Below, one piece after another: positions 4,242 to 42,338 of a stretch of DNA of 64,000 bases. The notes below the pieces were generated by a model that had not been told where the DNA came from, searched no databases, and was given only the letters and a program-made list of their open reading frames with translations. The position numbers were made by a program, and so were the translations under genes. Position 1 is the stretch's first letter, and each line of letters begins with the position of its first letter. Location of the stretch: positions 154,553 through 218,552 of the forward strand of contig JASEFK010000006.1 of assembly GCA_030019255.1 (NCBI GenBank), read 5' to 3'. Source of the stretch: Actinomycetota bacterium (lineage in GTDB: Bacteria; Actinomycetota; Geothermincolia; Geothermincolales; RBG-13-55-18).

Positions 4242-4667
4242 TCACACCCGGCGAGGGAACTTCCCGCCTTCCGCGAGCTCCCACACCCTTTCCAGGACCA
4301 CGCGCCTGGCTCGCGCGGCCAAAAATAGGTTGACCGCCAGGAAGACGACCGCGGCGCCCAGGGTGGGCCAGGAACGGAAACCCAGGGCCACCCCCAGGTG
4401 CATCGCCCCCCTGGCCCATACCAGGGGATACCCCCCGGGGAACATCCGCCGCCTCCCCCTCCCCCGCCGCGCCTTCCATTCGCCGCGCCGCCTCAGGGTG
4501 TACAGGAGGCCGCCGCCCCACAGCAACACCCCGGCGGGCACCGCCAGCCAGGCGGGAAGCGGGATGCGCCAGTGCAGGAGGTAGGCGGCCACCACGCTGC
4601 CCATTATCAGCAGGGACTCCACCCATAATAGGGCGCGCAGTCGGTAGCCCGCTCGACGTGCCATCAT
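4242..4667 (-). CDS. small integral membrane protein (hypothetical)
   Basis: 141 aa with 3-4 hydrophobic helices (LLWVESLLIMGSVVAAYLL, WLAVPAGVLLWGGGLLY, LGAAVVFLAVNLFLAA). Its ATG overlaps the stop of the upstream TolB-like gene (ATGA), which implies co-transcription. Confidence 0.5.
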   Translation of the reverse strand: MMARRAGYRLRALLWVESLLIMGSVVAAYLLHWRIPLPAWLAVPAGVLLWGGGLLYTLRRRGEWKARRGRGRRRMFPGGYPLVWARGAMHLGVALGFRSWPTLGAAVVFLAVNLFLAARARRVVLERVWELAEGGKFPRRV

Positions 4668-6061
4668 CCACCTCCCGCGTACTCATCGTGCAGGGTCAGG
4701 ATATAGAGGTAGGAGGGGATGCCCAGGGCGGAATCCAGGGGATCGCCGGTCGGGCGGCAACGCCCGAAGACGATCCTCTTCCCGTCCGGACCGAAGCACA
4801 TCTCGGTTATCTGGGTGCCGGAGGGACGATACTCGTACGGACCCGTTTCCTCCATGACGTAGACAGGGTCATATTCCGGGTAACCGGGCTCGGTGAAGTG
4901 AGTAAGCCGGGTCTTACCCGATCCGTCGACCCGCACGATGTATATCTCGTCCTCGTGGCCCACGATACCCTTGGTCTCCTTGAAGGCGATGAGGGTGCCG
5001 TCGGGCGAATAAGAGGGGTCCTCGTCGTGCAGCCAGACGCTGTCCGTCAGCCTTTCCACCAGCCTCCCCTCCAGGTCGCAGGTGAACAACTCCCCGGCCA
5101 CCGCCCGCCCGTTGGTCTCGGCGAGCACGGAGTAGCAGCCTATGAAACCCTGGTCTCCGGGCACGAACCCGTTGGCCTCGTTGAGGGTGTAACCCGGGGG
5201 CGGCTCCAGCTTCCTTAAGTTGGAAAGCTCCGGCCCCTCCGGCCCGAAGGCAATATCGGCGTAGACTATCCTCCAGGCCAGCATCTCCTCCCCCACCCGG
5301 TAGGTGAACTGCTCGGAGGAATGGTAGGCACCGGGGTGACCATAGGGCGGGCCGGAGGGCCGGTCTCCCGGAAGAAGGAGGTCCCCCTCCTTCCCGTTGG
5401 GATATTTTTCCATGGAATATTCCTCGCACCAGAAGACCTTGCTCCCATCACCTGAAAAGGAGGGCTCTATGACCGCCCAGTTCTCGGGGTAGTCGGTCAG
5501 CCTCCAGAAGCGGGAACCGTCCGCGGTCATGATCCACACGTTGTGGTTCCGCCCCCAGCCGGGCCGCGCCGATGCACCGTGTTTTAAGCGAGGATAGGCG
5601 GCGTTCTCCGCGGTGAAGATGATGTAATCCCCGCTCGGGTGCCATGCCGACTGGCCGCGGTGCCCGCATCCCTCCAGGGCTTCCTTTCCCGCCGTGAGGC
5701 ATACCGCGTCGCTTCCGTCCGGACGGCAGACGAAAACTTCGTACCGGCCATCCACGAGGTCGGTGAAGGTGATCAGGTCGCGGCTCCAGGACCAGCGGGG
5801 GAAGGATCCGGTGCGGATGCGCTCCACGGTCACTGCCCCGGGCTTTTCCGGCTGGGCCGCTTTCCCTCCGCATCCCAGGTGGAGGGCGACCAGGATCAAA
5901 GTGGCCAGGAGCGCCGGCCGGAACGCAATCCGGCCCCGGGGCACGCCCCCCGGGGAAAAATCGCGGACCTGAGGTTTGAGACCTGCGCTCTTGGCTTCCA
6001 GGCCAGGGTTCCGAAACCCGTCCCGAGCGACATCTCTCCTCTTTCTCAGTCCTTTACGCAT
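4664..6061 (-). CDS. TolB-like / PD40 beta-propeller repeat lipoprotein
   Basis: Repeated PD40-type segments (WHPSGDYIIFTA, SFSGDGSKVFW, YSPDGTLIAF, CFGPDGKRIVF). A lipoprotein signal ...RPALLATLILVALHLGCGG carries a lipobox. The first ~40 codons of the listed ORF are Arg/Gly-rich, so the true start is probably the in-frame GTG near 5944 (MPRGRIAFRPALLATLILVALHLGC...). Confidence 0.7.
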   Translation of the reverse strand: MRKGLRKRRDVARDGFRNPGLEAKSAGLKPQVRDFSPGGVPRGRIAFRPALLATLILVALHLGCGGKAAQPEKPGAVTVERIRTGSFPRWSWSRDLITFTDLVDGRYEVFVCRPDGSDAVCLTAGKEALEGCGHRGQSAWHPSGDYIIFTAENAAYPRLKHGASARPGWGRNHNVWIMTADGSRFWRLTDYPENWAVIEPSFSGDGSKVFWCEEYSMEKYPNGKEGDLLLPGDRPSGPPYGHPGAYHSSEQFTYRVGEEMLAWRIVYADIAFGPEGPELSNLRKLEPPPGYTLNEANGFVPGDQGFIGCYSVLAETNGRAVAGELFTCDLEGRLVERLTDSVWLHDEDPSYSPDGTLIAFKETKGIVGHEDEIYIVRVDGSGKTRLTHFTEPGYPEYDPVYVMEETGPYEYRPSGTQITEMCFGPDGKRIVFGRCRPTGDPLDSALGIPSYLYILTLHDEYAGGG

Positions 6062-6844: not shown

Positions 6845-8608
6845 ATGACCGAGGACCTGGACCGGATAAGCGAGGCGCGCCGTGCCTGGGAGGAGGGGCC
6901 CCTGGCCAAGGCCCTCCAGAGGTTCCCCTACCTGAACAAGGACAGCTGCCGCTTCTACACTCCCCTGGACATCGAGCCCTTCGACTTTTTGGAGAAGGTC
7001 GGCTTCCCGGGCACCTACCCCTTCACCGCCGGCACCTTCCCCATCGAGCCCATGGCCGGCCTGGCCCGCCTGGCCTCCCTGGCCGGGGGAAAGGGGGAGA
7101 TACCCGGGGCCGGTGGCCAGACCCGCGCCGCCATCTACTCCGGGTACGGCACCCCGGAGGACACCCGGGACTACTACAGGGGCCTTATCGAGCAGGGGGG
7201 ACGGGGAGGTCCCAACCTGGCCTTCGACCTCCCCACCCAGTGCGGCTACGACTCCGACCATCCCCTGGCCGAGGGGGAGGTGGGCAAGGTGGGGGTGTGC
7301 GTGGACACCCTGGCCGACTTCGAAATCATCTACGAACCCTACCGAGGGGACCTCGACCTGGACCGCATCGCCTCCAACTTCACCATCAACGCCCCGGCCA
7401 ACGTGATCATCGCCATGTACGCCGCCCTGGCCGAGAAGCGGGGCATACCCCTGGAAAAGTTGCGGGCCACCCCCCAGAACGACATCCTTAAGGAGTACAT
7501 CGCCCGGGGGACCTATATCTTTCCCCCGCGGCACGCCCTGCGCATGTTCCGGGACAGCCTGGTGTTCATCACCCGCCACATGCCCAACGTGAACATCACC
7601 AGCATCGGCGGCTACCACATCCGGGAGGCCGGGGCCACCCGGGAACAGGACCTGGCCTTCTCCATGGCCATCGCCATCGAGTACCTCAGGGTGGGGGTGG
7701 ATGCAGGCCTCCAGGTGGACGAATTCGCCCCCCGCTTCACCTTCAATGCCTTCGGAGGCTCCATGGAGATGCTCAAGGAGATCGCCTTCCAGCGGGCGGC
7801 GAGGCGCATGTACGCCAGGATACTGAAGGAGCGTTTCGGGGCCCGGGACGAGCGGAGCATGCGCATCCGCCAGGCCCTGGGGGCTCACATCGGGCCCTCC
7901 TCCACCACCCTACAGCGCCCTCTGAACAACCTCACCCGGGCGGTCATCGGGGCGGTGGCCAGCGCCCTCTCCGGCGGCCGGCCCCTCCCCTTCCCTCCCT
8001 ACGACGAGCCCCTAGGCCTGGGGTGGAGCCTGGAGGCCCTCCAGCTGGCCCAGGACGCGGGAAGGATCATCGCCTGCGAGGCGCGGCTCCTCGAGTATGC
8101 CGATCCCTTCGCCGGCTCCTACTGCATGGAGTCCCTCACCGACGAGATCGAGAGCGCCGCCTGGGAGGAGCTGGAGAAGATAGAGAAGATGGGCGGGGCG
8201 GTGGCGGCCATCGAGAACGGCTACATGCAGAGGGAGATATCCCGCAGCGCCTACGAGCGCCAGCGGGCCATGGAGCGGGGGGAGAGGCTGGTGGTGGGGG
8301 TGAACTGCTTCACCGGGGAGCACGAGCTGGAGGTGACCACCAACCGGCTGGTCCCCAACCCCTACGACCCCGAGAGGAGGGAACGGGCGGAGGAGAGGCA
8401 GAAGGCCCGCCTTTCGGAGATCAAAAGGTCCCGGGACAACCGGGAGGTGGCCCGGCTCCTCCGGGAACTGGAGGCCCTGGCCAAGAGGGAGGAGGAGAAC
8501 CTCATCCCTCACCTCATCCAGTGCGTCAAGGCCTACGTGACCGAGGGGGAGATATGCGAGGTGCTGCGGGGAGTCTTCGGGGAGTACCAGGCGGTCTCCC
8601 CCTTCTGA
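6845..8608 (+). CDS. divergent acyl-CoA mutase large (substrate-binding TIM-barrel) subunit, methylmalonyl-CoA-mutase family, lacking a fused B12 domain
   Basis: 587 aa. The first half ...YTPLDIEPFDFLEKVGFPGTYPFTAGTFP...AFDLPTQCGYDSDHP... and the C-terminal half with the acidic/Arg-rich coiled tail (LIPHLIQCVKAYVTEGEICEVLRGVFGEYQAV) match the MCM alpha / IcmA architecture. The canonical FTRG(P/V)Y-P-MY motif is replaced by FTAGTFPIEPM. AAAGGGGGA RBS 4 nt before ATG 6845. The B12 domain is encoded separately at 10937. Confidence 0.75.
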   Translation: MTEDLDRISEARRAWEEGPLAKALQRFPYLNKDSCRFYTPLDIEPFDFLEKVGFPGTYPFTAGTFPIEPMAGLARLASLAGGKGEIPGAGGQTRAAIYSGYGTPEDTRDYYRGLIEQGGRGGPNLAFDLPTQCGYDSDHPLAEGEVGKVGVCVDTLADFEIIYEPYRGDLDLDRIASNFTINAPANVIIAMYAALAEKRGIPLEKLRATPQNDILKEYIARGTYIFPPRHALRMFRDSLVFITRHMPNVNITSIGGYHIREAGATREQDLAFSMAIAIEYLRVGVDAGLQVDEFAPRFTFNAFGGSMEMLKEIAFQRAARRMYARILKERFGARDERSMRIRQALGAHIGPSSTTLQRPLNNLTRAVIGAVASALSGGRPLPFPPYDEPLGLGWSLEALQLAQDAGRIIACEARLLEYADPFAGSYCMESLTDEIESAAWEELEKIEKMGGAVAAIENGYMQREISRSAYERQRAMERGERLVVGVNCFTGEHELEVTTNRLVPNPYDPERRERAEERQKARLSEIKRSRDNREVARLLRELEALAKREEENLIPHLIQCVKAYVTEGEICEVLRGVFGEYQAVSPF

Positions 8609-29344: not shown

Positions 29345-30496
29345 TCAGGCTGCCCTTATGGAGATGGATAACCGTCCTTCTTCGTTGAGTTCCCACTCGG
29401 CGATGGTGCTCTCGTTTCCGGAGGTGATCTCGTAGAAAGCCTGGGTCATGCCCACCATGAAAAGCTCCAGGCAGGCGTTGTGGAGCGTCATTTCCAGCTT
29501 CTTCCTATCCCCTTCCAGGGAAACCAGGTAACCCAGGCCCCTGCGGGCCATGTGCATCTTGAGCATGCCGGTTATGGTGGAGACCAGCTCCCGGTCCACC
29601 CTTTCGTGTATGTAGCGCCTGTGCGCCTCCACCACCGCCCTTCGAAGGGCCGGTCCGTGTTCCTCGGCCAAGTCATCGAACACCGCCTCCAGGGCCAGGG
29701 GGCCGAAGACGGCCACCCTCCTTCCGGTATCCGAGGCGGTGATGATCCCCCTCTCCAGGTCCCAATGGTACCCGGAGATGAGGGAGGGAACACCGCAGGA
29801 AGGGCACTTTTCGTGTTCCACGTCCCCGGCTACGAACTCGTACCTTTTTCTGCGCCTCAGCTTGCCCCCGAGCTCTACGGGGTGTTCGGAGGGAAAGAGG
29901 TGCAGCCTGAAGACGTCTTCTTCCATCTCCTCCCCCTCTATCCACATGTCCAAGCCCTCGAAGGCTTCGACGGTCCCCAGGATGTCCGCCTTCCAGAGGG
30001 GAACGGAATAAGGATACCTCATCACCAGCCGGCGCCATGGATAAGGCTCATCCTCCGCCCAGTCCACGGATACCTCCCCGTACCCGAAAACGCGGGCCAC
30101 GCCGGAGACCCTTTCCACCAGGTCCTCCCTTATCCGGACCACGAAATCGGCCATGGCCCGGCTGAGCGGAGAGTCCTTCGCCGTGGGTCCCGCATCGCCC
30201 AGAAGAAGGGTGTTCCGGATCTCGAAGGGAAAGCTCCTCTCGATGAACCTCCTGGTCTCCCTGCGCCGGCTCTCCACAACCATCGGCTCTATGCTCCGTC
30301 CCAGAATCCCCTCGATTCCCCGGAAGACGTTGTCTATGATGTTGGACTCGTAGATCACCATGCGGTTGTGAGGAGACTGGGCCAGGCTGATCACCCCGCC
30401 GCTTTCCCACCGCAGCTCGTTTCCCATCAGGGCGGGAACCCCGCACTGCTCACACCTTTCAATAGGTTGTGCCATTCCGCCCGTGCCCCCCTTCAC
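29345..30496 (-). CDS. uncharacterised protein, paralog A of a tandem pair; internally duplicated CxxCG(VP)...HNRM...IIDN module
   Basis: 383 aa. N-terminal half: CEQCGVPALMGNELRWESGGVISLAQSPHNRMVIYESNIIDNVFRGIEGILG. C-terminal half: CPSCGVPSLISGYHWDLERGIITASDTGRRVAVFGPLALEAVFDDLAEEHG. About 45% identical to the protein at 30840-31976. A likelier start is M8 (ATG about 30475), which has an AAGGGGGG RBS. Confidence 0.6.
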   Translation of the reverse strand: MKGGTGGMAQPIERCEQCGVPALMGNELRWESGGVISLAQSPHNRMVIYESNIIDNVFRGIEGILGRSIEPMVVESRRRETRRFIERSFPFEIRNTLLLGDAGPTAKDSPLSRAMADFVVRIREDLVERVSGVARVFGYGEVSVDWAEDEPYPWRRLVMRYPYSVPLWKADILGTVEAFEGLDMWIEGEEMEEDVFRLHLFPSEHPVELGGKLRRRKRYEFVAGDVEHEKCPSCGVPSLISGYHWDLERGIITASDTGRRVAVFGPLALEAVFDDLAEEHGPALRRAVVEAHRRYIHERVDRELVSTITGMLKMHMARRGLGYLVSLEGDRKKLEMTLHNACLELFMVGMTQAFYEITSGNESTIAEWELNEEGRLSISIRAA

Positions 30497-30839: not shown

Positions 30840-31976
30840 CTAAAGAGTGACCTCTATCTCTAGGTCACCGTCGTCGCGCAGGCTCCATCTGACCTCGGAA
30901 TTCTCCCTGCCCATGGCGATCTCGTAAAGGGCCTGCGCCATGCCCACGTTCAGATAGGGCATACAGGCGTTATGGAGGGTCACCGAGAGGTGCTCTGTGT
31001 CCGCTTCGAATCTGGCCACGTAGCCCAGCCCCCTGAGGGCAGCCATGTGCATGAAATCGGTGCCCCTCTTCCTCCAGTTCTCACCCGCGACGCGCGATTT
31101 CACGTACCTCCTCTGGGCTTCCACGGCGGCTGCGGGCACCTCATCGCCCAGCTCCGCTTCCAGGTCCTGCAGGACGGCATCCACGGCATGGGGACCGAAG
31201 AGGGCCATCCTCCTCCCGCTATCGGTATCGGTTATGATTCCCCTGTCCAGGTCCCAGTTCAAGCGCTCAACTTCACGAGGCACGCCGCATCCCGGACAAA
31301 GGTCATAGTGGAGTTCACCAGGCTTGAAAGGGTAGCGCTTTCTCGCCAGGCGTTCCCGGAGAGCCACGGGGTGTTCTCCGGGCTGGACCTCGAAAAGATA
31401 GACTCCCTCCTCAAGTTCACGGTAGGTGACGCAGTGGTCCTTGCCCTCGAAGGCCTCCACGGAAGCCAGGCACTCCGCGGCGAAAAAGAGCACCGAATAG
31501 GGATTGTGGACTACGGTGGAGCGCCAGGGATGCACGTCACCCTCCTCCCACAGGGGACCCGGCCTGGAGTCCCCGTAACCGTATACCCTGCCTACCTCGA
31601 AGACCCTGCCGGCCAGAGCCTTTCCCAGCGGCCCGCGAACCGCCCGCGCCAACCCTTTCAATCCCGGCATCCCGCTGAGGCGCTCGTTGAGTGTCACCAA
31701 GGGCCGCCGTATCCAGGCGGGGAATACCCCCTCGATGTACTTCCTCACCTCCCGGCGCCGGCTCTCGATGACGATGTGCTCGATGGAAACGCCGATGAGC
31801 TCCTCGATGCCCCGGAAGAGATTGTCGATGATGTTGGACTCGTAAAGAACCATGCGGTTGTGGGGTGCCCTGGCCAGGTGAATGACCCCGTCGCTTCCCC
31901 ACCGCAGTTCCCTGCCAATGAAGAGCGGCACACCGCAGGAAGGGCATTTTTTCCTGAGTGAAGATCCTCCCGGCAT
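30840..31976 (-). CDS. uncharacterised protein, paralog B of the tandem pair (same two-module architecture)
   Basis: 378 aa. CPSCGVPLFIGRELRWGSDGVIHLARAPHNRMVLYESNIIDNLFRGIEELIG and CPGCGVPREVERLNWDLDRGIITDTDSGRRMALFGPHAVDAVLQDLEAELG. Collinear with paralog A. Confidence 0.6.
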   Translation of the reverse strand: MPGGSSLRKKCPSCGVPLFIGRELRWGSDGVIHLARAPHNRMVLYESNIIDNLFRGIEELIGVSIEHIVIESRRREVRKYIEGVFPAWIRRPLVTLNERLSGMPGLKGLARAVRGPLGKALAGRVFEVGRVYGYGDSRPGPLWEEGDVHPWRSTVVHNPYSVLFFAAECLASVEAFEGKDHCVTYRELEEGVYLFEVQPGEHPVALRERLARKRYPFKPGELHYDLCPGCGVPREVERLNWDLDRGIITDTDSGRRMALFGPHAVDAVLQDLEAELGDEVPAAAVEAQRRYVKSRVAGENWRKRGTDFMHMAALRGLGYVARFEADTEHLSVTLHNACMPYLNVGMAQALYEIAMGRENSEVRWSLRDDGDLEIEVTL

Positions 31977-34747: not shown

Positions 34748-35812
34748 CTACTGCAGGGCCACCATCTCGTGCAGGGTGGTACCCGTCTCCTCGACGGAAC
34801 GCCCATCATGGTTCACGCGGAGGGTAAAATCCGACTCGAAGCGGAACCATCCCGGGCGCATGAAACGGTTCACCAACCACTTGACGGCCGGGTTCATGAT
34901 CACCGGGTTGAGCTCGGAGAGGAAATCGTTGGCGTCTATGATGCGCCTCACGTCCAGTCGCAGGAAGACCCGGTCGGGGATTTCCATTTCCAGGAAAGTG
35001 GGATAGGTGCGGTTGGCTGCAGGATGGAAGTCCGGCGGCCCCTCCCTCAGCCGCATCTCCCCGGAGCTGAGAATCACCTCGCCTCCCCGGGCCAGCATGA
35101 GCGGCCTGGAGGCCTTCCCCCCGAAGCGTTTCCGCGTCTTCACGTAGGCGTAGAGCAGGGTGTGTTCCGGGGTGTACAGCCTTCCCCAGTACCAGAAGGA
35201 GAGGATGCGCCGCATGTCCGCGGTGACCACATTGTGGTCATGGTAGCCTATCCCCCGGGCCCGCAGGGTGGTGCCCCCGTAACGCACTGTTCCCTCCACT
35301 TCCGCCCGCGGCGCGGGGACCACCCAGGCGAAGTAACCGCGGTCCCCGTACCTGGTGAGACCCTTTCCGGGTTTCCATCCCGGGACCTGGCTGCGGAAAG
35401 TGAGGTCCGCTTCCATGCCCTCCTCGGCGATGTGCAGGTAGTGCACGGGCAAGTTGCCGCCCTCGGGAAACTCGGCGTAGCAGTGGTTGTCCCCCACCCG
35501 CACGTCACACTTCTCGGTGGAGGCCTTCAGCTGGGAGTGCGGGAACTTCTTGACCACGGAGAGCTTCTCTCCGTCCGGCTTATAGACATGCAGTTCTATG
35601 CCCGGCTTACGGGACATAAGTTCCGAGGCCTGGAGGAAACCAACCACCACGTGTCCGTCATCCAGGCGGGCGTCGAAATACCACCATTCCCCGTAGTAGC
35701 GGCTGCTCCTTGCTTCGGGATGCAGGGCGTTCTCTTCGGGAGTCAGAGGAATTATTTCCCCGTCCTTCTCCCCGGGACCTAACCACTCGTCGACAACCGG
35801 CTCTATCCTCAT
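34748..35812 (-). CDS. CrtC/AttH-like (hydroxyneurosporene-synthase-type lipocalin-like hydratase) family protein, tentative
   Basis: 355 aa from the ATG at 35812, with a GGGAGG RBS 5 nt upstream. Trp/Tyr-rich beta-rich sequence (YYGEWWYFDARLDDGHVVVGFL...GYFAWVV...). The family assignment rests on overall resemblance only. Confidence 0.4.
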   Translation of the reverse strand: MRIEPVVDEWLGPGEKDGEIIPLTPEENALHPEARSSRYYGEWWYFDARLDDGHVVVGFLQASELMSRKPGIELHVYKPDGEKLSVVKKFPHSQLKASTEKCDVRVGDNHCYAEFPEGGNLPVHYLHIAEEGMEADLTFRSQVPGWKPGKGLTRYGDRGYFAWVVPAPRAEVEGTVRYGGTTLRARGIGYHDHNVVTADMRRILSFWYWGRLYTPEHTLLYAYVKTRKRFGGKASRPLMLARGGEVILSSGEMRLREGPPDFHPAANRTYPTFLEMEIPDRVFLRLDVRRIIDANDFLSELNPVIMNPAVKWLVNRFMRPGWFRFESDFTLRVNHDGRSVEETGTTLHEMVALQ

Positions 35813-36428
35813 CTCTACCTCCCTCTCCGAGACGCCTCGTGCCGTCACTCCGCCCTTTATGGACGGAAACCGTAAATGAAAACCTTCGGCCCACGGATCC
35901 ACCCGATTTCCCGCTTGCCTCTACCCACGATCCGCCAGGAGAGCCCTGGAACGACAGGGCAGGGACGCCTCGTCTCCTGGTACCATCCATTATAGACAAG
36001 ATCCCTTGTTCTGTTTTATGCTTATCCCGGGCTCCCCGTGAGTTCAAGGCATCTTCCAATCCCCCGAAGCTCGCCTTGATGCGGAAGCCTGGTGTGGATG
36101 ACACTGGTGGTTCCAACCCGGCCCCTCACCCGGACGCCCCTTCATTTCCCTCGACACAGGCCGGGCACAGGGATGTTCGCCATGTTCCGGGACCGGGGCC
36201 ATCCCTCCCCGGAAGCACTCACTTGCCCCCCGAGGCGCCGCGGGGCCCTGGCGGCCAGGCAAGGTGAGCCCCTGCCGGCTCCCTAAGTCGTTCCTCCTGG
36301 AAAAACCGGGGAAAGGGTGATCACATGGGAAGAGAGCGGCACCGGGCCTCTTGCCGCCGCGCGCGGGATATGGCGCCGCAAGGTGGTCGAGCGTCATCTT
36401 CCCGGTCAGAACCGGGGCCGGGAGGGGA

Positions 36429-37277
36429 TCACCTCGGCTTCCTGGCCCGGAGCCCCAGGCTCCTGACCCCGCGCAACAGGCGGTTTGCCTCCTCCAGGGG
36501 CAGCCCGAGTTCGGCGAGCAGCGCCTTGGCAGTAGGGTCGTTGCTCATGAGCTCGATGGGGAAGGGCGATTCCGCCACCACCTCCAGGTTCCGAAAGCCG
36601 GCCTGCTCGATCATCTCCAGGTAATCCTTCTTGAGGGCGGCGCCGGAGATGCAGCCCAAGTAGGCGGCCGTCGACTTCCGCACTGCCTCCGGGAGTTCCT
36701 CCTCCAGGACGATGTCCGAGACCATGAGCCTGCCGCCCGGCTTGAGCACCCGGTATGCCTCCCGGAAGACCCGGGGCTTGTCCGGGGAGAGGTTGATCAC
36801 GCAGTTGGAGATGATCACGTCCACCGAATTATTAGCCACCGGGAGGTTTTCTATCTCCCCCAGCCGGAACTCCACGTTGGAGTAGCCGCCGCGCCGCGCG
36901 TTTTCCCGTGCCCTCTCCAGCATCTCGGGGGTCATGTCCACGCCGATAACCCTGCCCTTTTCTCCCACCCGCCGGGCGGCCAGGAAGCAGTCCAAGCCGG
37001 GGCCGGAACCGAGGTCCAGGACCGTCTCTCCCTCCCGGAGGGAGGCCAGGGCCACCGGGTTTCCGCATCCCAAGCCGAGGTTGGCCCCCTCGGGGACGGA
37101 TTCTAACTCTTCCCTGGTATATCCAATGCGTATGCCGATCTCATCCGCCCGTGCGGGTCCGCAACAGCACAGCTGGGCAGAGCCACAGCAGGAAGATCCA
37201 TTTCCGGCGATAGCTCCGTATCCCTCCCTGACCACCTTCTTCACGTCCCTCTCCTCCATCTCTTCCTCCTTATCCAA
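36429..37277 (-). CDS. arsM: arsenite S-adenosylmethionine methyltransferase
   Basis: VREGYGAIA...SCCGS...LCCCG N-terminal Cys motifs. SAM-binding motif I VLDLGSGPGLD. Third conserved Cys region ...YLGCISGA. AAGGAGG RBS. Confidence 0.85.
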   Translation of the reverse strand: MDKEEEMEERDVKKVVREGYGAIAGNGSSCCGSAQLCCCGPARADEIGIRIGYTREELESVPEGANLGLGCGNPVALASLREGETVLDLGSGPGLDCFLAARRVGEKGRVIGVDMTPEMLERARENARRGGYSNVEFRLGEIENLPVANNSVDVIISNCVINLSPDKPRVFREAYRVLKPGGRLMVSDIVLEEELPEAVRKSTAAYLGCISGAALKKDYLEMIEQAGFRNLEVVAESPFPIELMSNDPTAKALLAELGLPLEEANRLLRGVRSLGLRARKPR

Positions 37278-37396
37278 TCGGGTTATCCTCGACCAATCGA
37301 GTTGTAAAACGCGTTCTTACCGCACCTGCAGGCAATAACGTCCACGGTGGTATCGACTCCCCCACCTCCACGGGAACCGGGTGGAAAAACGTCCGT

Positions 37397-37666
37397 TCAG
37401 GCCAGCCCCCGAAGGACCGGGCCCAACTTCTCCCTCACCAGTTCCCCGAGCTCATCGGCCCTCATGAGGACCACGCAGCAGATCCGGCCGTCCCTCTCCC
37501 AGCTCACCAGGGCCAGGCGGTCCCCCGCCTTGATGCCGGCCCGCTCGCGGAAATCCTTGGGAAGGACCATCTGCCCCCTCTCATCCACGCTCACCAGCGT
37601 CTCCACCCGGCAACCGGTGGACCCGGACGGGGCACAGCAGGCCTCCTCCGCCTTCCTCGCCGCCAT
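37397..37666 (-). CDS. AbrB/MazE/SpoVT-type (swapped-hairpin) DNA-binding protein with an N-terminal Cys triad, immediately upstream of arsM
   Basis: 89 aa from ATG 37666, with a GAGGAGG RBS 5 nt upstream. Sequence MAARKAEEACCAPSGSTGCRVETLVSVDERGQMVLPKDFRERAGIKAGDRLALVSWERDGRICCVVLMR.... It carries the SpoVT/AbrB signature (QMVLPKDFRE..GIK.GD.L). The listed ORF start 37843 lies in AT-rich non-coding DNA. Confidence 0.6.
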   Translation of the reverse strand: MAARKAEEACCAPSGSTGCRVETLVSVDERGQMVLPKDFRERAGIKAGDRLALVSWERDGRICCVVLMRADELGELVREKLGPVLRGLA

Positions 37667-37706
37667 GGACGCCTCCTCGCTCTCCACTGCGATCTGTGTT
37701 TGAATT

Positions 37707-37731
37707 TTCTGAATATTCTTATATTTCAGAA
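37707..37731. promoter_or_regulatory. imperfect palindrome TTCTGAATAT-tctt-ATATTTCAGAA in an AT-rich promoter upstream of the AbrB-like/arsM operon (candidate operator)
   Basis: Read directly. TTCTGAA (37707-37713) and TTCAGAA (37725-37731) are reverse complements flanking AATAT/ATATT. It sits 40-65 nt upstream of ATG 37666. Confidence 0.4.
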
Positions 37732-38822
37732 AATTACTGCAAAAGTCAAGCCGCACCCGGAGGTGCGGCGGAGGGCCAGGGAGACCATTCCCCGGAGCAG
37801 GCTCCGGAAGTATTCGTGCCGGGTCCCGTCGGCCCTTCCCCACAGGCGGCGGACCTTATCCGCCCAGGGGCCGAAGAAGGCGGGGTGTTCCGGGTAGTCC
37901 CCGTACGACCTACGCAGGGCCGCGGCGGTGCCGGCCAGGGCGGCCATGCGCGCCAGGGAGGAGGGGCGCAATTTCCCGGAGGCGATCCCCCGGGCCATGG
38001 TGGGAAGCCCCCCTGGCCACCTCCGCGAGGTCGGACCTCAGCTCGTATTCCAGGTTGAAGCCACGGTCCCCTCCTCGCTGAAGATGCCGGGCACGGAATA
38101 GAGGAAGTCTGTCCCCCTTTCCATGACTCCATGTACACCACCAGGGTGTCCAGGTCTTCCGGGGGGTCGTCCTCCCATCAGGGACTTACGGGAACCCTCG
38201 TCCTCACCGCCCCCCGGAGCCCGGAGGCGTCCACCACCAGGCGACCGCGCAGTTCGTACTCCGAATCCCCCCTGCGGACCCTCATTCCCTTCGGGAATCC
38301 CCTCTTCCAAAGCAGGTCCAGGAATTCCGTCTCCTCCCGGAATTCCACCCCCTCCTCCGCCGCGTAACCCCGCAGGCGCCTCATGAAAGCCGGTTTGTCC
38401 ATGTCCAGGGTTACCAGGCGGGCGGTGACCCGATGTCCGCCCCCCGTGGACCACATGGTAATGGTTTCCAGGCGGTGCAGCAGCTTCTTTCCCCGCGGGA
38501 GGGGGATGGCGAACCTCTCGAAGGAAGGTTTTTCCATGTGGAAGGGCCCTATGGACCTGCCCAGCGAATCCAGTCTCTACCTCTCCAGCACCAGGCAGCG
38601 GAAACCCGCCTCTGCCAGCTTCCAGGACAGATAGGTGCCCGACGTCCCCGCGCCTACGATGATCGCGTCGTATTCATCCGCCACCGTTGGTCGCCCCTTT
38701 TCTCTCCCCGCCTTCGCCGTCCCCGGAAGGACGAGGGATACTCTCCCCTCTCCTCTCTCCCCTTCCCCCGCCACCGCGCATCCCGCCATCGTCGCCTGTT
38801 CCCTTTTCCGGGCCGGCCCCAC
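37726..38822 (-). pseudogene. geranylgeranyl-reductase-family FAD-dependent oxidoreductase, disrupted (at least 3 frame changes and stops)
   Basis: Three same-strand fragments in different frames together cover one GGR-type protein. N-terminus YDAIIVGAGTSGTYLSWKLAEAGFRCLVLER (38577-38822). Middle ...EYELRGRLVVDASGLRGAVR (38178-38537). C-terminus ...GIASGKLRPSSLARMAALAGTAAALRRSYGDYPEHP... (37726-37998). Confidence 0.55.
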
Positions 38823-40935: not shown

Positions 40936-41904
40936 TCAGCCCGACGCCTTACTTCTCACCTCCGCCCGCATGAGTATCCTACCACAGGCTCCCCGCGGCC
41001 AGGCGTCACCGTAGCAGGAGATGGGGATGTCGAAAAGGGTTCCCGAGAACTCTGGTTCCTCCTCCACTCCCTGGGCCATCCTCTCCAGGAGGAGCATGAC
41101 CCGGAACCAGGCCTTGTGCAGGGCCATGATGCAGGGGTCCTTTCCCGTTTCCCGCCGCAGCACACGTCCCACGGAATCCAGGACCACCTCGTCGCCCGAC
41201 ACGTGGCCGGCGGGGCAGCCCACCGCCTCCACCACCCTGAGCACCACCCGGAGGTCCCGGAACCTCTCCATGGCCCGCAGGCGCATGACCCTCTCGGGGC
41301 GGGAAAGGAAGACCTCCATCTCCTCCGGGGAGAGGGGCAGGTCGGACGAAGGTGCGGGGGCGCAGGTGGCGGCATCGCGCTCCCCCGCGGAGTCCTTGAA
41401 CGCCCGGTCCCGCCCCCGCTGCCGCCGGTCGGTGATAAAAAGGTAGGGAAGGAGGCGCAGCATGCCGCGCACCGCCTCCAGGAAGGGCATCCTCTCCCTG
41501 CTCACCCGGAAAACGCACCTCCCCAGGCCGCCCTGCTCCAGGCCCGGGTCCGTACAGGCCACGGTGTGGAAGACCATGTCGTTGGGGTCCCTGCCCCGCA
41601 GCATGTGGTCATAATAGGAATAGATGACCGGCGAGAGCTGGGAAAGGCCGTGGACGCATATGGTGGCCGGACTTTTCCTCCTGATCAGTCCCCCCATGGC
41701 ATCGAAATACAGGGGACGTCCCTCGTAGTTCTGGCCCATGCAGTGGCGCGAGTACACCGGCTCCGCCTTTATCCAGTAGAACATGTCCCTGACGCTGATG
41801 GCATCCAGCAGGCCGGTGCGCCTGGCCTTCTCCAGCTCCTCCGGGGTGTAACCCCAGCGGTTCCTTATCAACCTCATGGTAACTTTTTCCATCAGGCCAC
41901 CCAT
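40936..41904 (-). CDS. conserved hypothetical protein (Cys-containing, possibly internally duplicated)
   Basis: 322 aa from ATG 41904, with a perfect AAGGAGGTG RBS 6 nt upstream. The listed ORF start 41991 is a junk extension. No family recognised. Confidence 0.5.
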   Translation of the reverse strand: MGGLMEKVTMRLIRNRWGYTPEELEKARRTGLLDAISVRDMFYWIKAEPVYSRHCMGQNYEGRPLYFDAMGGLIRRKSPATICVHGLSQLSPVIYSYYDHMLRGRDPNDMVFHTVACTDPGLEQGGLGRCVFRVSRERMPFLEAVRGMLRLLPYLFITDRRQRGRDRAFKDSAGERDAATCAPAPSSDLPLSPEEMEVFLSRPERVMRLRAMERFRDLRVVLRVVEAVGCPAGHVSGDEVVLDSVGRVLRRETGKDPCIMALHKAWFRVMLLLERMAQGVEEEPEFSGTLFDIPISCYGDAWPRGACGRILMRAEVRSKASG

Positions 41905-42338
41905 CCTCGCCACCTCCTTCTCTCTATATCCCGCCCGGCCCCACTCCCGGACGGGAGAAAGACCGGGCCTCCCCGCCCTTCCCTCGTCCATCCCCTACGG
42001 TCGGCAAGTGATTCCCGAAAGGAACAGACCTCTTATCTCCCCGGCCACCATCCCGCGTTCCGATCCCTGTCCTGGTCAACGGGCCAGGGACATCTCACCG
42101 GTAGCGGTTTCTATTCTCTTCCCCGCCTCGATCCGGGGCAACCCACCGCCTCCACCCGCAAAGCCGGCATACGGCTCCGAATGCTGAAACCAGGCCGGTT
42201 TCAAGGCCCCTACCGGGAGGAGGCTGCATTATACTTAAGGTTGATGCTTCCGGCCCCGCGGGAGGATAAACCGGGAGCCGGAGGACGGGTCCACGGGGGC
42301 GGATGGTAACGTGCCTCACGCGCCGGAAGGGAGGAGAA

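Follow-up and report, generated by a model that had tools for sequence, protein, structure and literature searches.

We identify, in a window of 64,000 nucleotides from a Geothermincolia (Actinomycetota) genome (contig JASEFK010000006.1), a small regulator gene of the AbrB/SpoVT type that lies directly upstream of arsM, the gene for As(III) S-adenosylmethionine (SAM) methyltransferase, behind a promoter with a phased array of short palindromes. It is probable, from sequence comparisons across bacteria and archaea, that the regulator binds this array and controls its own gene. On balance we favor a model in which it is an autoregulating AbrB-type repressor that is released by a thiophilic metal(loid), most likely As(III). 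We put forward more tentatively, and with slightly less than even confidence, the wider proposal of a new metal(loid)-sensor class, in which an AbrB-fold repressor with a cysteine site made from its tail and last strand acts through a phased array and drives both arsM and the mercury methylation genes hgcAB. Arsenic responsiveness is what the cargo gene and the cysteines suggest; binding of one oligomer per box, repression, and the identity of the ligand are parts of the model that we infer.

The regulator gene occupies 37397..37666 on the minus strand, stop codon included, and encodes an 89-residue protein, MAARKAEEACCAPSGSTGCRVETLVSVDERGQMVLPKDFRERAGIKAGDRLALVSWERDGRICCVVLMRADELGELVREKLGPVLRGLA as translated from its open reading frame (ORF), which begins MAARKAEEACCAPSGSTGCRVETLV. 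Its ATG is at 37666, with AGGAGG at 37672-37677, 5 nt before it. We prefer this start because the homologues and NCBI use the 89-residue form, which has the AGGAGG site; a longer ORF of 148 residues from a GTG at 37843 was rejected, as it would cross the terminator hairpin, promoter, and operator described below. The arsM gene follows on the same strand, starting 137 nt downstream of the regulator gene, and spans 36429..37259 (276 residues, ATG start, GGAGG at 37265-37269; the ORF list gives a TTG at 37277 as an alternative start). Its product matches the arsenite methyltransferase model NF008823 at 362 bits (cut-off 263) as well as PF13847, and contains an N-terminal cysteine cluster together with the cysteines of GLGCG (C65), SNCV (C153), and LGC (C203), which we take to correspond to C72, C174, and C224 of CmArsM. 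A scan of the locus found no terminator-like site in the stretch between the two genes, and a two-gene operon with arsM as cargo is the best explanation of this arrangement as predicted from sequence. The ORFs thus confirm the preliminary description of this DNA in placing an 89-residue AbrB-type gene directly upstream of arsM.

Profile searches strongly support the prediction that the regulator is a DNA-binding protein of the AbrB/SpoVT type. It matches PF04014 at 33.8 bits (cut-off 24.7), the AbrB model TIGR01439 at 35.6 bits (cut-off 28.3), and the NCBIfam model NF040962, "HgcAB-associated protein HgcC", at 115.2 bits (cut-off 70), with its residues 19-86 aligned to model positions 2-69 of 70. 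NCBI lists an identical protein under the name "HgcAB-associated protein HgcC [Candidatus Solincola sp.]". No winged-helix match to HTH_5 or HTH_20 was found in Pfam or NCBIfam at E-values up to 0.01, and the MraZ model NF001476 gave 17.9 bits over 23 residues only (cut-off 162), which places the regulator outside MraZ. The closest solved relatives in a profile search of the PDB are SpoVT (2ro5, E=5e-4) and AbrB-family regulators (E=7e-3 to 1e-2), which are transcription factors and not toxin-bound antitoxins. The earlier assignment to a non-ArsR, AbrB-fold family is borne out by this PDB search and by the PF04014, TIGR01439, and NF040962 matches. The family is compact, comprising 371 clusters at E<=1e-10 in a profile search of 1.84 billion cluster representatives, the best 150 of which served as diverse representatives in the comparisons that follow.

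The segment D28-ERGQMVLPKDF-R40 (37547..37585, minus strand) is the predicted DNA-contact loop and helix, and aligns with the DNA-binding loop of SpoVT and AbrB-family regulators. Within it, D28, R30, G31, Q32, P36, K37, and R40 are invariant in an alignment of 60 homologue sequences (A1) and conserved at 91-99% in the 150 diverse representatives, where the DNA-contact residues are the most conserved positions of the family. The loop reads D-E-R-G-Q, with R30 and Q32 invariant, versus the D-x-x-x-R quoted for AbrB, SpoVT, and MraZ, and these shifted residues may underlie recognition of the pentamer TCWGA introduced below. An AlphaFold2 monomer based on A1 has a mean predicted local distance difference test (pLDDT) score of 78.5, falling below 50 at residues 1-9 and to about 62 at residues 11-20, and the N-terminal tail is predicted to be flexible or disordered. 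The modeled chain has β-strands at residues 18-26, 50-58, and 61-69, an α-helix at 37-43, and a C-terminal helix at 70-88.

The candidate operator was located by alignment with four close relatives and extends over 37699..37730 on the minus strand as four pentamers in 9-bp phase. Read on the sense strand, these are a perfect core TCTGA (37726-37730, centered at 37728), an imperfect core TAAGA (37717-37721, centered at 37719), a second perfect core TCAGA (37708-37712, centered at 37710), and a second imperfect core TCAAA (37699-37703, centered at 37701). The preliminary description had pointed to a palindrome in this promoter. That palindrome, TTCTGAATATTCTTATATTTCAGAA, occupies 37707-37731, which is 41-65 nt before the regulator ATG, and the pattern TTCTGAA-N5-20-TTCAGAA occurs once in the window, with 0.01 occurrences expected from shuffled sequence. 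Its position and uniqueness stand, but its reading as a simple two-arm element does not, as it corresponds to the two perfect cores (TCTGA and TCAGA) of the 9-bp phased array.

The promoters were then compared across the family. We collected the 105 nt before the start codon at 77 loci and used windows matched for AT content as controls. ATCAGA or its complement TCTGAT is present in 86% of the 77 promoters versus 11% of controls, and the average number of cores per promoter is 4.2 versus 0.5. The family core is the pentamer TCWGA, itself palindromic and flanked by A/T. Adjacent cores lie exactly 9 bp apart, center to center, in 125/179 pairs, and 18 bp apart in a further 29/179, versus 5/442 and 10/442 pairs, respectively, in 4,192 control windows. 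A phased pair of cores is found in 43/44 promoters linked to arsM and in all 29 linked to hgcA, and chains of at least three phased cores, found in 56 of the 77 promoters, are absent from the rest of the 564 kb of loci. These comparisons support a cis-element, predicted from sequence, that belongs specifically to the promoter of the regulator gene and has been kept across phyla and in both domains.

Bacterial arrays follow a TTGACA -35 box, which is present in 57% of the family promoters, and archaeal arrays abut a TATAAATA box. Counted from the start of TTGAC, the median center is +30 for the first core and +50 for the last, so that the array extends from the -10 box to about +15 and would overlap both that box and the predicted start of transcription. 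In the window, the candidate promoter lies at 37721..37749 (minus strand), with a -35 element TTGACT at 37744-37749, a 17-nt spacer, and a -10 element AAATAT at 37721-37726. In a promoter alignment (A4), this -10 falls under TAATAT and TATAAT of two relatives (L088 and L089, respectively), each located 16-17 nt after TTGACA or TTGAAA. A strict sigma-70 consensus scan of 36300-38000 found no promoter, so the placement is one that we infer.

A scan of one genome per species gave 276 relatives, and we kept the best 80 loci, which include Syntrophales and other Desulfobacterota, Chloroflexota, Nitrospirota, Actinomycetota/Geothermincolia, Methanoregula, Methanothrix, and Thermoplasmata. Immediately downstream of the regulator gene, in the same orientation, lies arsM in 46/80 loci and hgcA in 30/80, a ratio biased by selection of the best matches to an arsM-linked query and not to be read as a frequency; of the other loci, three are cut short by the end of a contig, and one is ambiguous. 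The association of homologues with ars genes, which had been proposed as a check, is therefore present, with hgcA as an additional partner. The median gap between regulator and arsM is about 42 nt, and all four closer relatives in Geothermincolia have the regulator followed by arsM. Upstream neighbors are not conserved, with 99 Pfam families in 73 loci and at most 3 loci per family; neither a toxin family nor a conserved ArsR was found among them. The second downstream gene, available at 70 loci, encodes the HgcB ferredoxin or nothing recurrent. The hgcA/hgcB adjacency associated with NF040962 is absent in the window, where the downstream gene is arsM, and the name HgcC describes only part of the family.

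The same neighborhoods bear on the idea that the regulator is an orphan or mis-paired type II antitoxin of the MazE/PrlF kind, lying beside arsM by chance. The best Pfam match carries the name MazE_antitoxin, and relatives are labeled "antitoxin PrlF" by JGI and KEGG (PMC10349881). However, there is no toxin gene on either side of the regulator gene in the window, no toxin family among the upstream neighbors of the 73 loci or the second downstream genes of the 70, and arsM or hgcA lies downstream in 76/80 loci. The cysteines and the C-terminal helix are also conserved, in a distinct family with its own NCBIfam model. We regard this explanation as effectively refuted and its probability as minimal; the overlooked toxin partner that the preliminary description had named as a possible undoing of its proposal did not materialize.

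The regulator has cysteines at residues 10, 11, 19, 63, and 64, arranged as two groups. The N-terminal cluster (37610..37639, minus strand) comprises C10 and C11, with codons at 37634-37639, and C19, with its codon at 37610-37612, just before strand β1; the vicinal pair C63-C64 (37475..37480, minus strand) lies in the last β-strand of the AbrB domain. The internal CC is common to all of the 120 closest homologues, nearly all of which also have an N-terminal CC followed, 6-10 residues on and before β1, by C or CC. A1 shows no variation at C63 and C64, and at least 90% of close homologues keep C19. Each of the 79 proteins from the loci and the window has two or more N-terminal cysteines, and 78/79 locus-encoded homologues, counted where the region is present, have the internal CC. 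Conservation in the 150 diverse representatives is 89% for C64, 79% for C63, 75% for C19, and 61% for C18. The distal pair (C10, C11) is replaced by CxC or absent in some lineages, and the hgcA-linked Methanoregula proteins have an N-terminal CxCx5C in place of CC. By these alignments the conserved cysteine core is C19, C63, and C64, with C10 and C11 common but replaceable.

These patterns revise the preliminary description, which had proposed an N-terminal cysteine triad as the arsenic site. An N-terminal cluster does exist, but its spacing is CCx7C and not CCx6C, and the triad is not the conserved core: C63-C64 had been missed, and C10 and C11 are replaceable. Homologues free of cysteines and equally tied to arsM, which had been named as a finding that would speak against the proposal, did not emerge among the close relatives, all of which carry clustered cysteines. 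Three-thiolate sites in known As(III) repressors combine a vicinal CC with one further cysteine, as in AfArsR (C95/C96/C102) and CgArsR (C15/C16/C55') (PMC11868830).

One homologue at the edge of the family is poor in cysteines. P0213, encoded at two loci (L091 57-344 and L092 143-430), has no N-terminal cysteine and reads "HC" at the internal pair; its gene is followed not by arsM or hgcA but by genes for a ferredoxin and an aldehyde:ferredoxin oxidoreductase. In the P0213 promoter, a TTGACA box precedes TCTGA cores that are spaced 9 bp apart. To judge from these sequences, the DNA-reading module is here reused with a non-metalloid cargo, which is consistent with a barrel that would serve as the DNA reader and with cysteines that would be a specialization for metal(loid) cargoes.

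P0213 also weighs on an explanation in which the regulator is an ArsD-like chaperone that hands As(III) or Hg(II) to the thiol sites of ArsM or HgcAB, DNA binding being secondary or vestigial. The gene is consistently found beside enzymes that take thiol-bound soft metal(loid)s, its CC pairs and single cysteine resemble C12/C13/C18 of ArsD, and the ArsM encoded here also has an N-terminal cysteine cluster. Against delivery as the main function, it is the DNA-contact loop and not the cysteines that is most conserved, the specific phased operator co-occurs with the gene in both domains and nowhere else nearby, the cysteine-poor P0213 keeps that operator with an unrelated cargo, and no fusion to ArsM or HgcA was found among 270 homologues. 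We consider a chaperone improbable.

A more serious competitor, although still an unlikely one in our view, accepts that the regulator binds the TCWGA array and differs in the signal: the cysteines would sense Hg(II) or methylmercury, thiol-disulfide redox state, an Fe-S or Zn center, S-adenosylhomocysteine (SAH), or a methylation by-product. The same family and operator stand before hgcAB in 30/80 loci, the hgcA-linked Methanoregula proteins differ in their N-terminal pattern (CxCx5C), and five cysteines per chain exceed the need of one As(III) site. Vicinal CC pairs, however, are typical of As(III), Sb(III), or Hg(II) sites and not of Fe-S clusters. The commonest cargo is arsM (46/80, in the sample biased towards it), the substrate of whose product is As(III), and proteins linked to arsM and to hgcA interleave in the tree, which argues for one shared ligand class. 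We rejected a clean split into arsM and hgcA subfamilies on the basis of this interleaving in a neighbor-joining tree, although 66/73 proteins have a nearest tree neighbor with the same cargo type in what is a weak tree of about 80 residues. Also in favor of a different signal, an ArsR-like regulator of hgcAB responds to SAH besides arsenic (bioRxiv 10.1101/2022.10.17.512643).

We propose that the regulator is a homo-oligomeric swapped-hairpin protein in which each two-fold symmetric barrel would read one palindromic TCWGA pentamer. The barrel fits the pentamer in symmetry, one being two-fold symmetric and the other palindromic, and there is precedent in the MraZ-DNA structure, where the protein's own promoter has four repeated boxes and each is occupied by one swapped-hairpin "cradle" (PMC12957436). 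Several barrels would align on the 9-bp array from the -10 box to about +15, probably joined via their C-terminal helices, and would block RNA polymerase in bacteria or TATA-binding protein and transcription factor B (TBP/TFB) in archaea, shutting off the regulator gene and arsM. A thiophilic metal(loid) would bind C19 at the base of the tail and C63/C64 in the last strand, with C10/C11 as auxiliary ligands; since ArsM acts on As(III), this is the obvious candidate. Ligand binding would then disturb the barrel or the contacts between barrels, leading to release from DNA and induction of ArsM. In other organisms hgcAB may be controlled by the same module of sensor and operator.

Several observations weigh against this model of an As(III)-released repressor. 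At the edges of the family, in the 150 diverse representatives, the cysteines are less conserved than the DNA loop, and one homologue without the internal CC (P0179) keeps an N-terminal CC...CC and precedes an arsM-like methyltransferase. Of the four cores of the array in the window just two are perfect, and AAATAT is a weak -10 box. The family also stands before hgcAB, and the ligand is possibly not arsenic. Finally, a Foldseek search of the PDB with the AlphaFold2 monomer returned only noise (best E=1.6), as expected for the tertiary arrangement of one chain taken from an intertwined dimer.

The preliminary description had called this kind of regulator undescribed, which does not hold: the family is already cataloged as HgcC under NF040962, and the gene type has been flagged before (PMC10349881). 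In the searchable literature, that study included, we found no link of the HgcC family to arsM, to conserved cysteines, or to an operator. What appears to be undescribed there is the predominance of arsM as the partner in this sample, the cysteine core that the HgcC family conserves, the 9-bp phased TCWGA operator common to bacteria and archaea, and the model of a non-ArsR, AbrB-fold metalloid sensor for arsenic and mercury methylation.

If the model is correct, its implications reach beyond this locus. All arsenite-responsive repressors characterized so far belong to the winged-helix ArsR family (PMC11868830), and an AbrB-fold sensor would mean that metalloid sensing had been invented independently, and would offer a new scaffold for biosensors. 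Arsenic and mercury methylation in anaerobes would come under one regulator and one operator, with the mercury methylation genes natively wired into a response to arsenic or to thiophilic metalloids in general. The control of hgcAB and its native role are still open questions (PMC10349881; bioRxiv 10.1101/2022.10.17.512643), and the model would provide a handle on hgcAB expression in methanogens and syntrophs. A precise operator (TCWGA, 9-bp period) and few candidate ligand residues make it testable, and the operator can be searched for in genomes to define a regulon.

The upstream flank contains further features. A terminator-like GC hairpin lies just upstream of the promoter at 37750..37769 (minus strand), with an 8-pair stem that includes 7 GC pairs and is followed by TTGACTTTTG; it would end the upstream (pseudo)gene and insulate the cassette. 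That upstream gene (37726-38822, minus strand) encodes a flavin adenine dinucleotide (FAD)-dependent oxidoreductase split into ORFs of 81, 119, and 90 residues in different frames, and is intact in the relatives at L087 and L089 (457-458 residues). Its three-piece state recurs in five independent assemblies, and we therefore consider it a real pseudogene and not an assembly error. An Rfam scan of 36300-38000 found no riboswitch or leader and returned one sub-threshold chance match only. Neither the HgcA cap-helix motif N[VI]WC[AS][AG]GK nor HgcB motifs occur in a six-frame search of the 64 kb, so that hgcAB was rejected as a partner within the window.

Other genes of the window and of the related loci can be placed around the cassette. 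Two conserved flanking genes on the minus strand, at 40936-41991 (351 residues) and 34748-35902 (384 residues), have no Pfam match; the latter, called at 354 residues in several loci, also follows arsM in the relatives at L086, L087, and L089. Tandem paralogues at 29345-30496 and 30840-31976 (minus strand; 383 and 378 residues) each carry two CxxCGVP zinc-ribbon-like motifs, and the one scanned, at 30840-31976, has no Pfam match. Two Syntrophales loci have both cargoes behind a single copy of the regulator: L007, with hgcA at ~4664 and arsM at 7552-8118, and L022, with arsM at 4273-5094 and hgcA at ~6266. In loci with both cargoes, no second phased array was found before the second cargo. At one Syntrophaceae locus, the regulator and arsM are separated by a second methyltransferase of the SAM-dependent type (L005 2494-3189), which carries CCGHTC as an N-terminal motif.

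Among known systems, the closest counterpart is the AbrB/PrlF/MazE-like gene that Zhang et al. (2023) found immediately before hgcA in about 39% of contigs with hgcAB, most of them archaeal, and suggested might regulate hgcAB (PMC10349881). The regulator described here belongs to the same protein family and shares the arrangement of a small AbrB-fold gene that directly precedes a methylation gene in the same orientation. The two differ in that the partner here is arsM, with no hgcA motif in the 64-kb window. An ArsR-like regulator that responds to arsenic and SAH also precedes hgcAB in other organisms (bioRxiv 10.1101/2022.10.17.512643), so that repressors of two unrelated families are found in the same place ahead of arsM and hgcAB alike.

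The ArsR/SmtB proteins (R773 ArsR, AfArsR, CgArsR, and ArArsR) resemble the proposed regulator in being encoded by a small repressor gene that stands first in an ars operon. ArArsR controls arsRMC, and the ArsR-type operator overlaps the repressor's own promoter, as we propose here. Three-thiolate As(III) sites have evolved repeatedly in this group, including sites made of a vicinal CC and one cysteine, for which the candidate ligands in the present regulator would be the conserved C10, C11, C19, C63, and C64. The fold and the operator set the two apart, a winged helix on a single-dyad operator in ArsR versus a swapped-hairpin β-barrel on a 9-bp phased pentamer array here.

ArsD offers a second comparison from within ars operons, where it too is encoded as a small protein with a vicinal cysteine pair and a nearby single cysteine. 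It was first described as a weak trans-acting repressor. ArsD differs in fold; no ArsA partner was found in the locus, and the DNA-binding sequence signatures of the regulator family are strong.

MraZ, AbrB, and SpoVT share the swapped-hairpin "cradle" domain with the regulator, and MraZ likewise autoregulates on four short repeated boxes. The regulator, however, is without the tandem UPF0040 domains of MraZ and the GAF domain of SpoVT, its loop reads DERGQ in place of DxxxR, and its box is TCWGA with a 9-bp period. Those relatives also lack a cysteine cluster, the presence of which in the regulator suggests a direct ligand switch.

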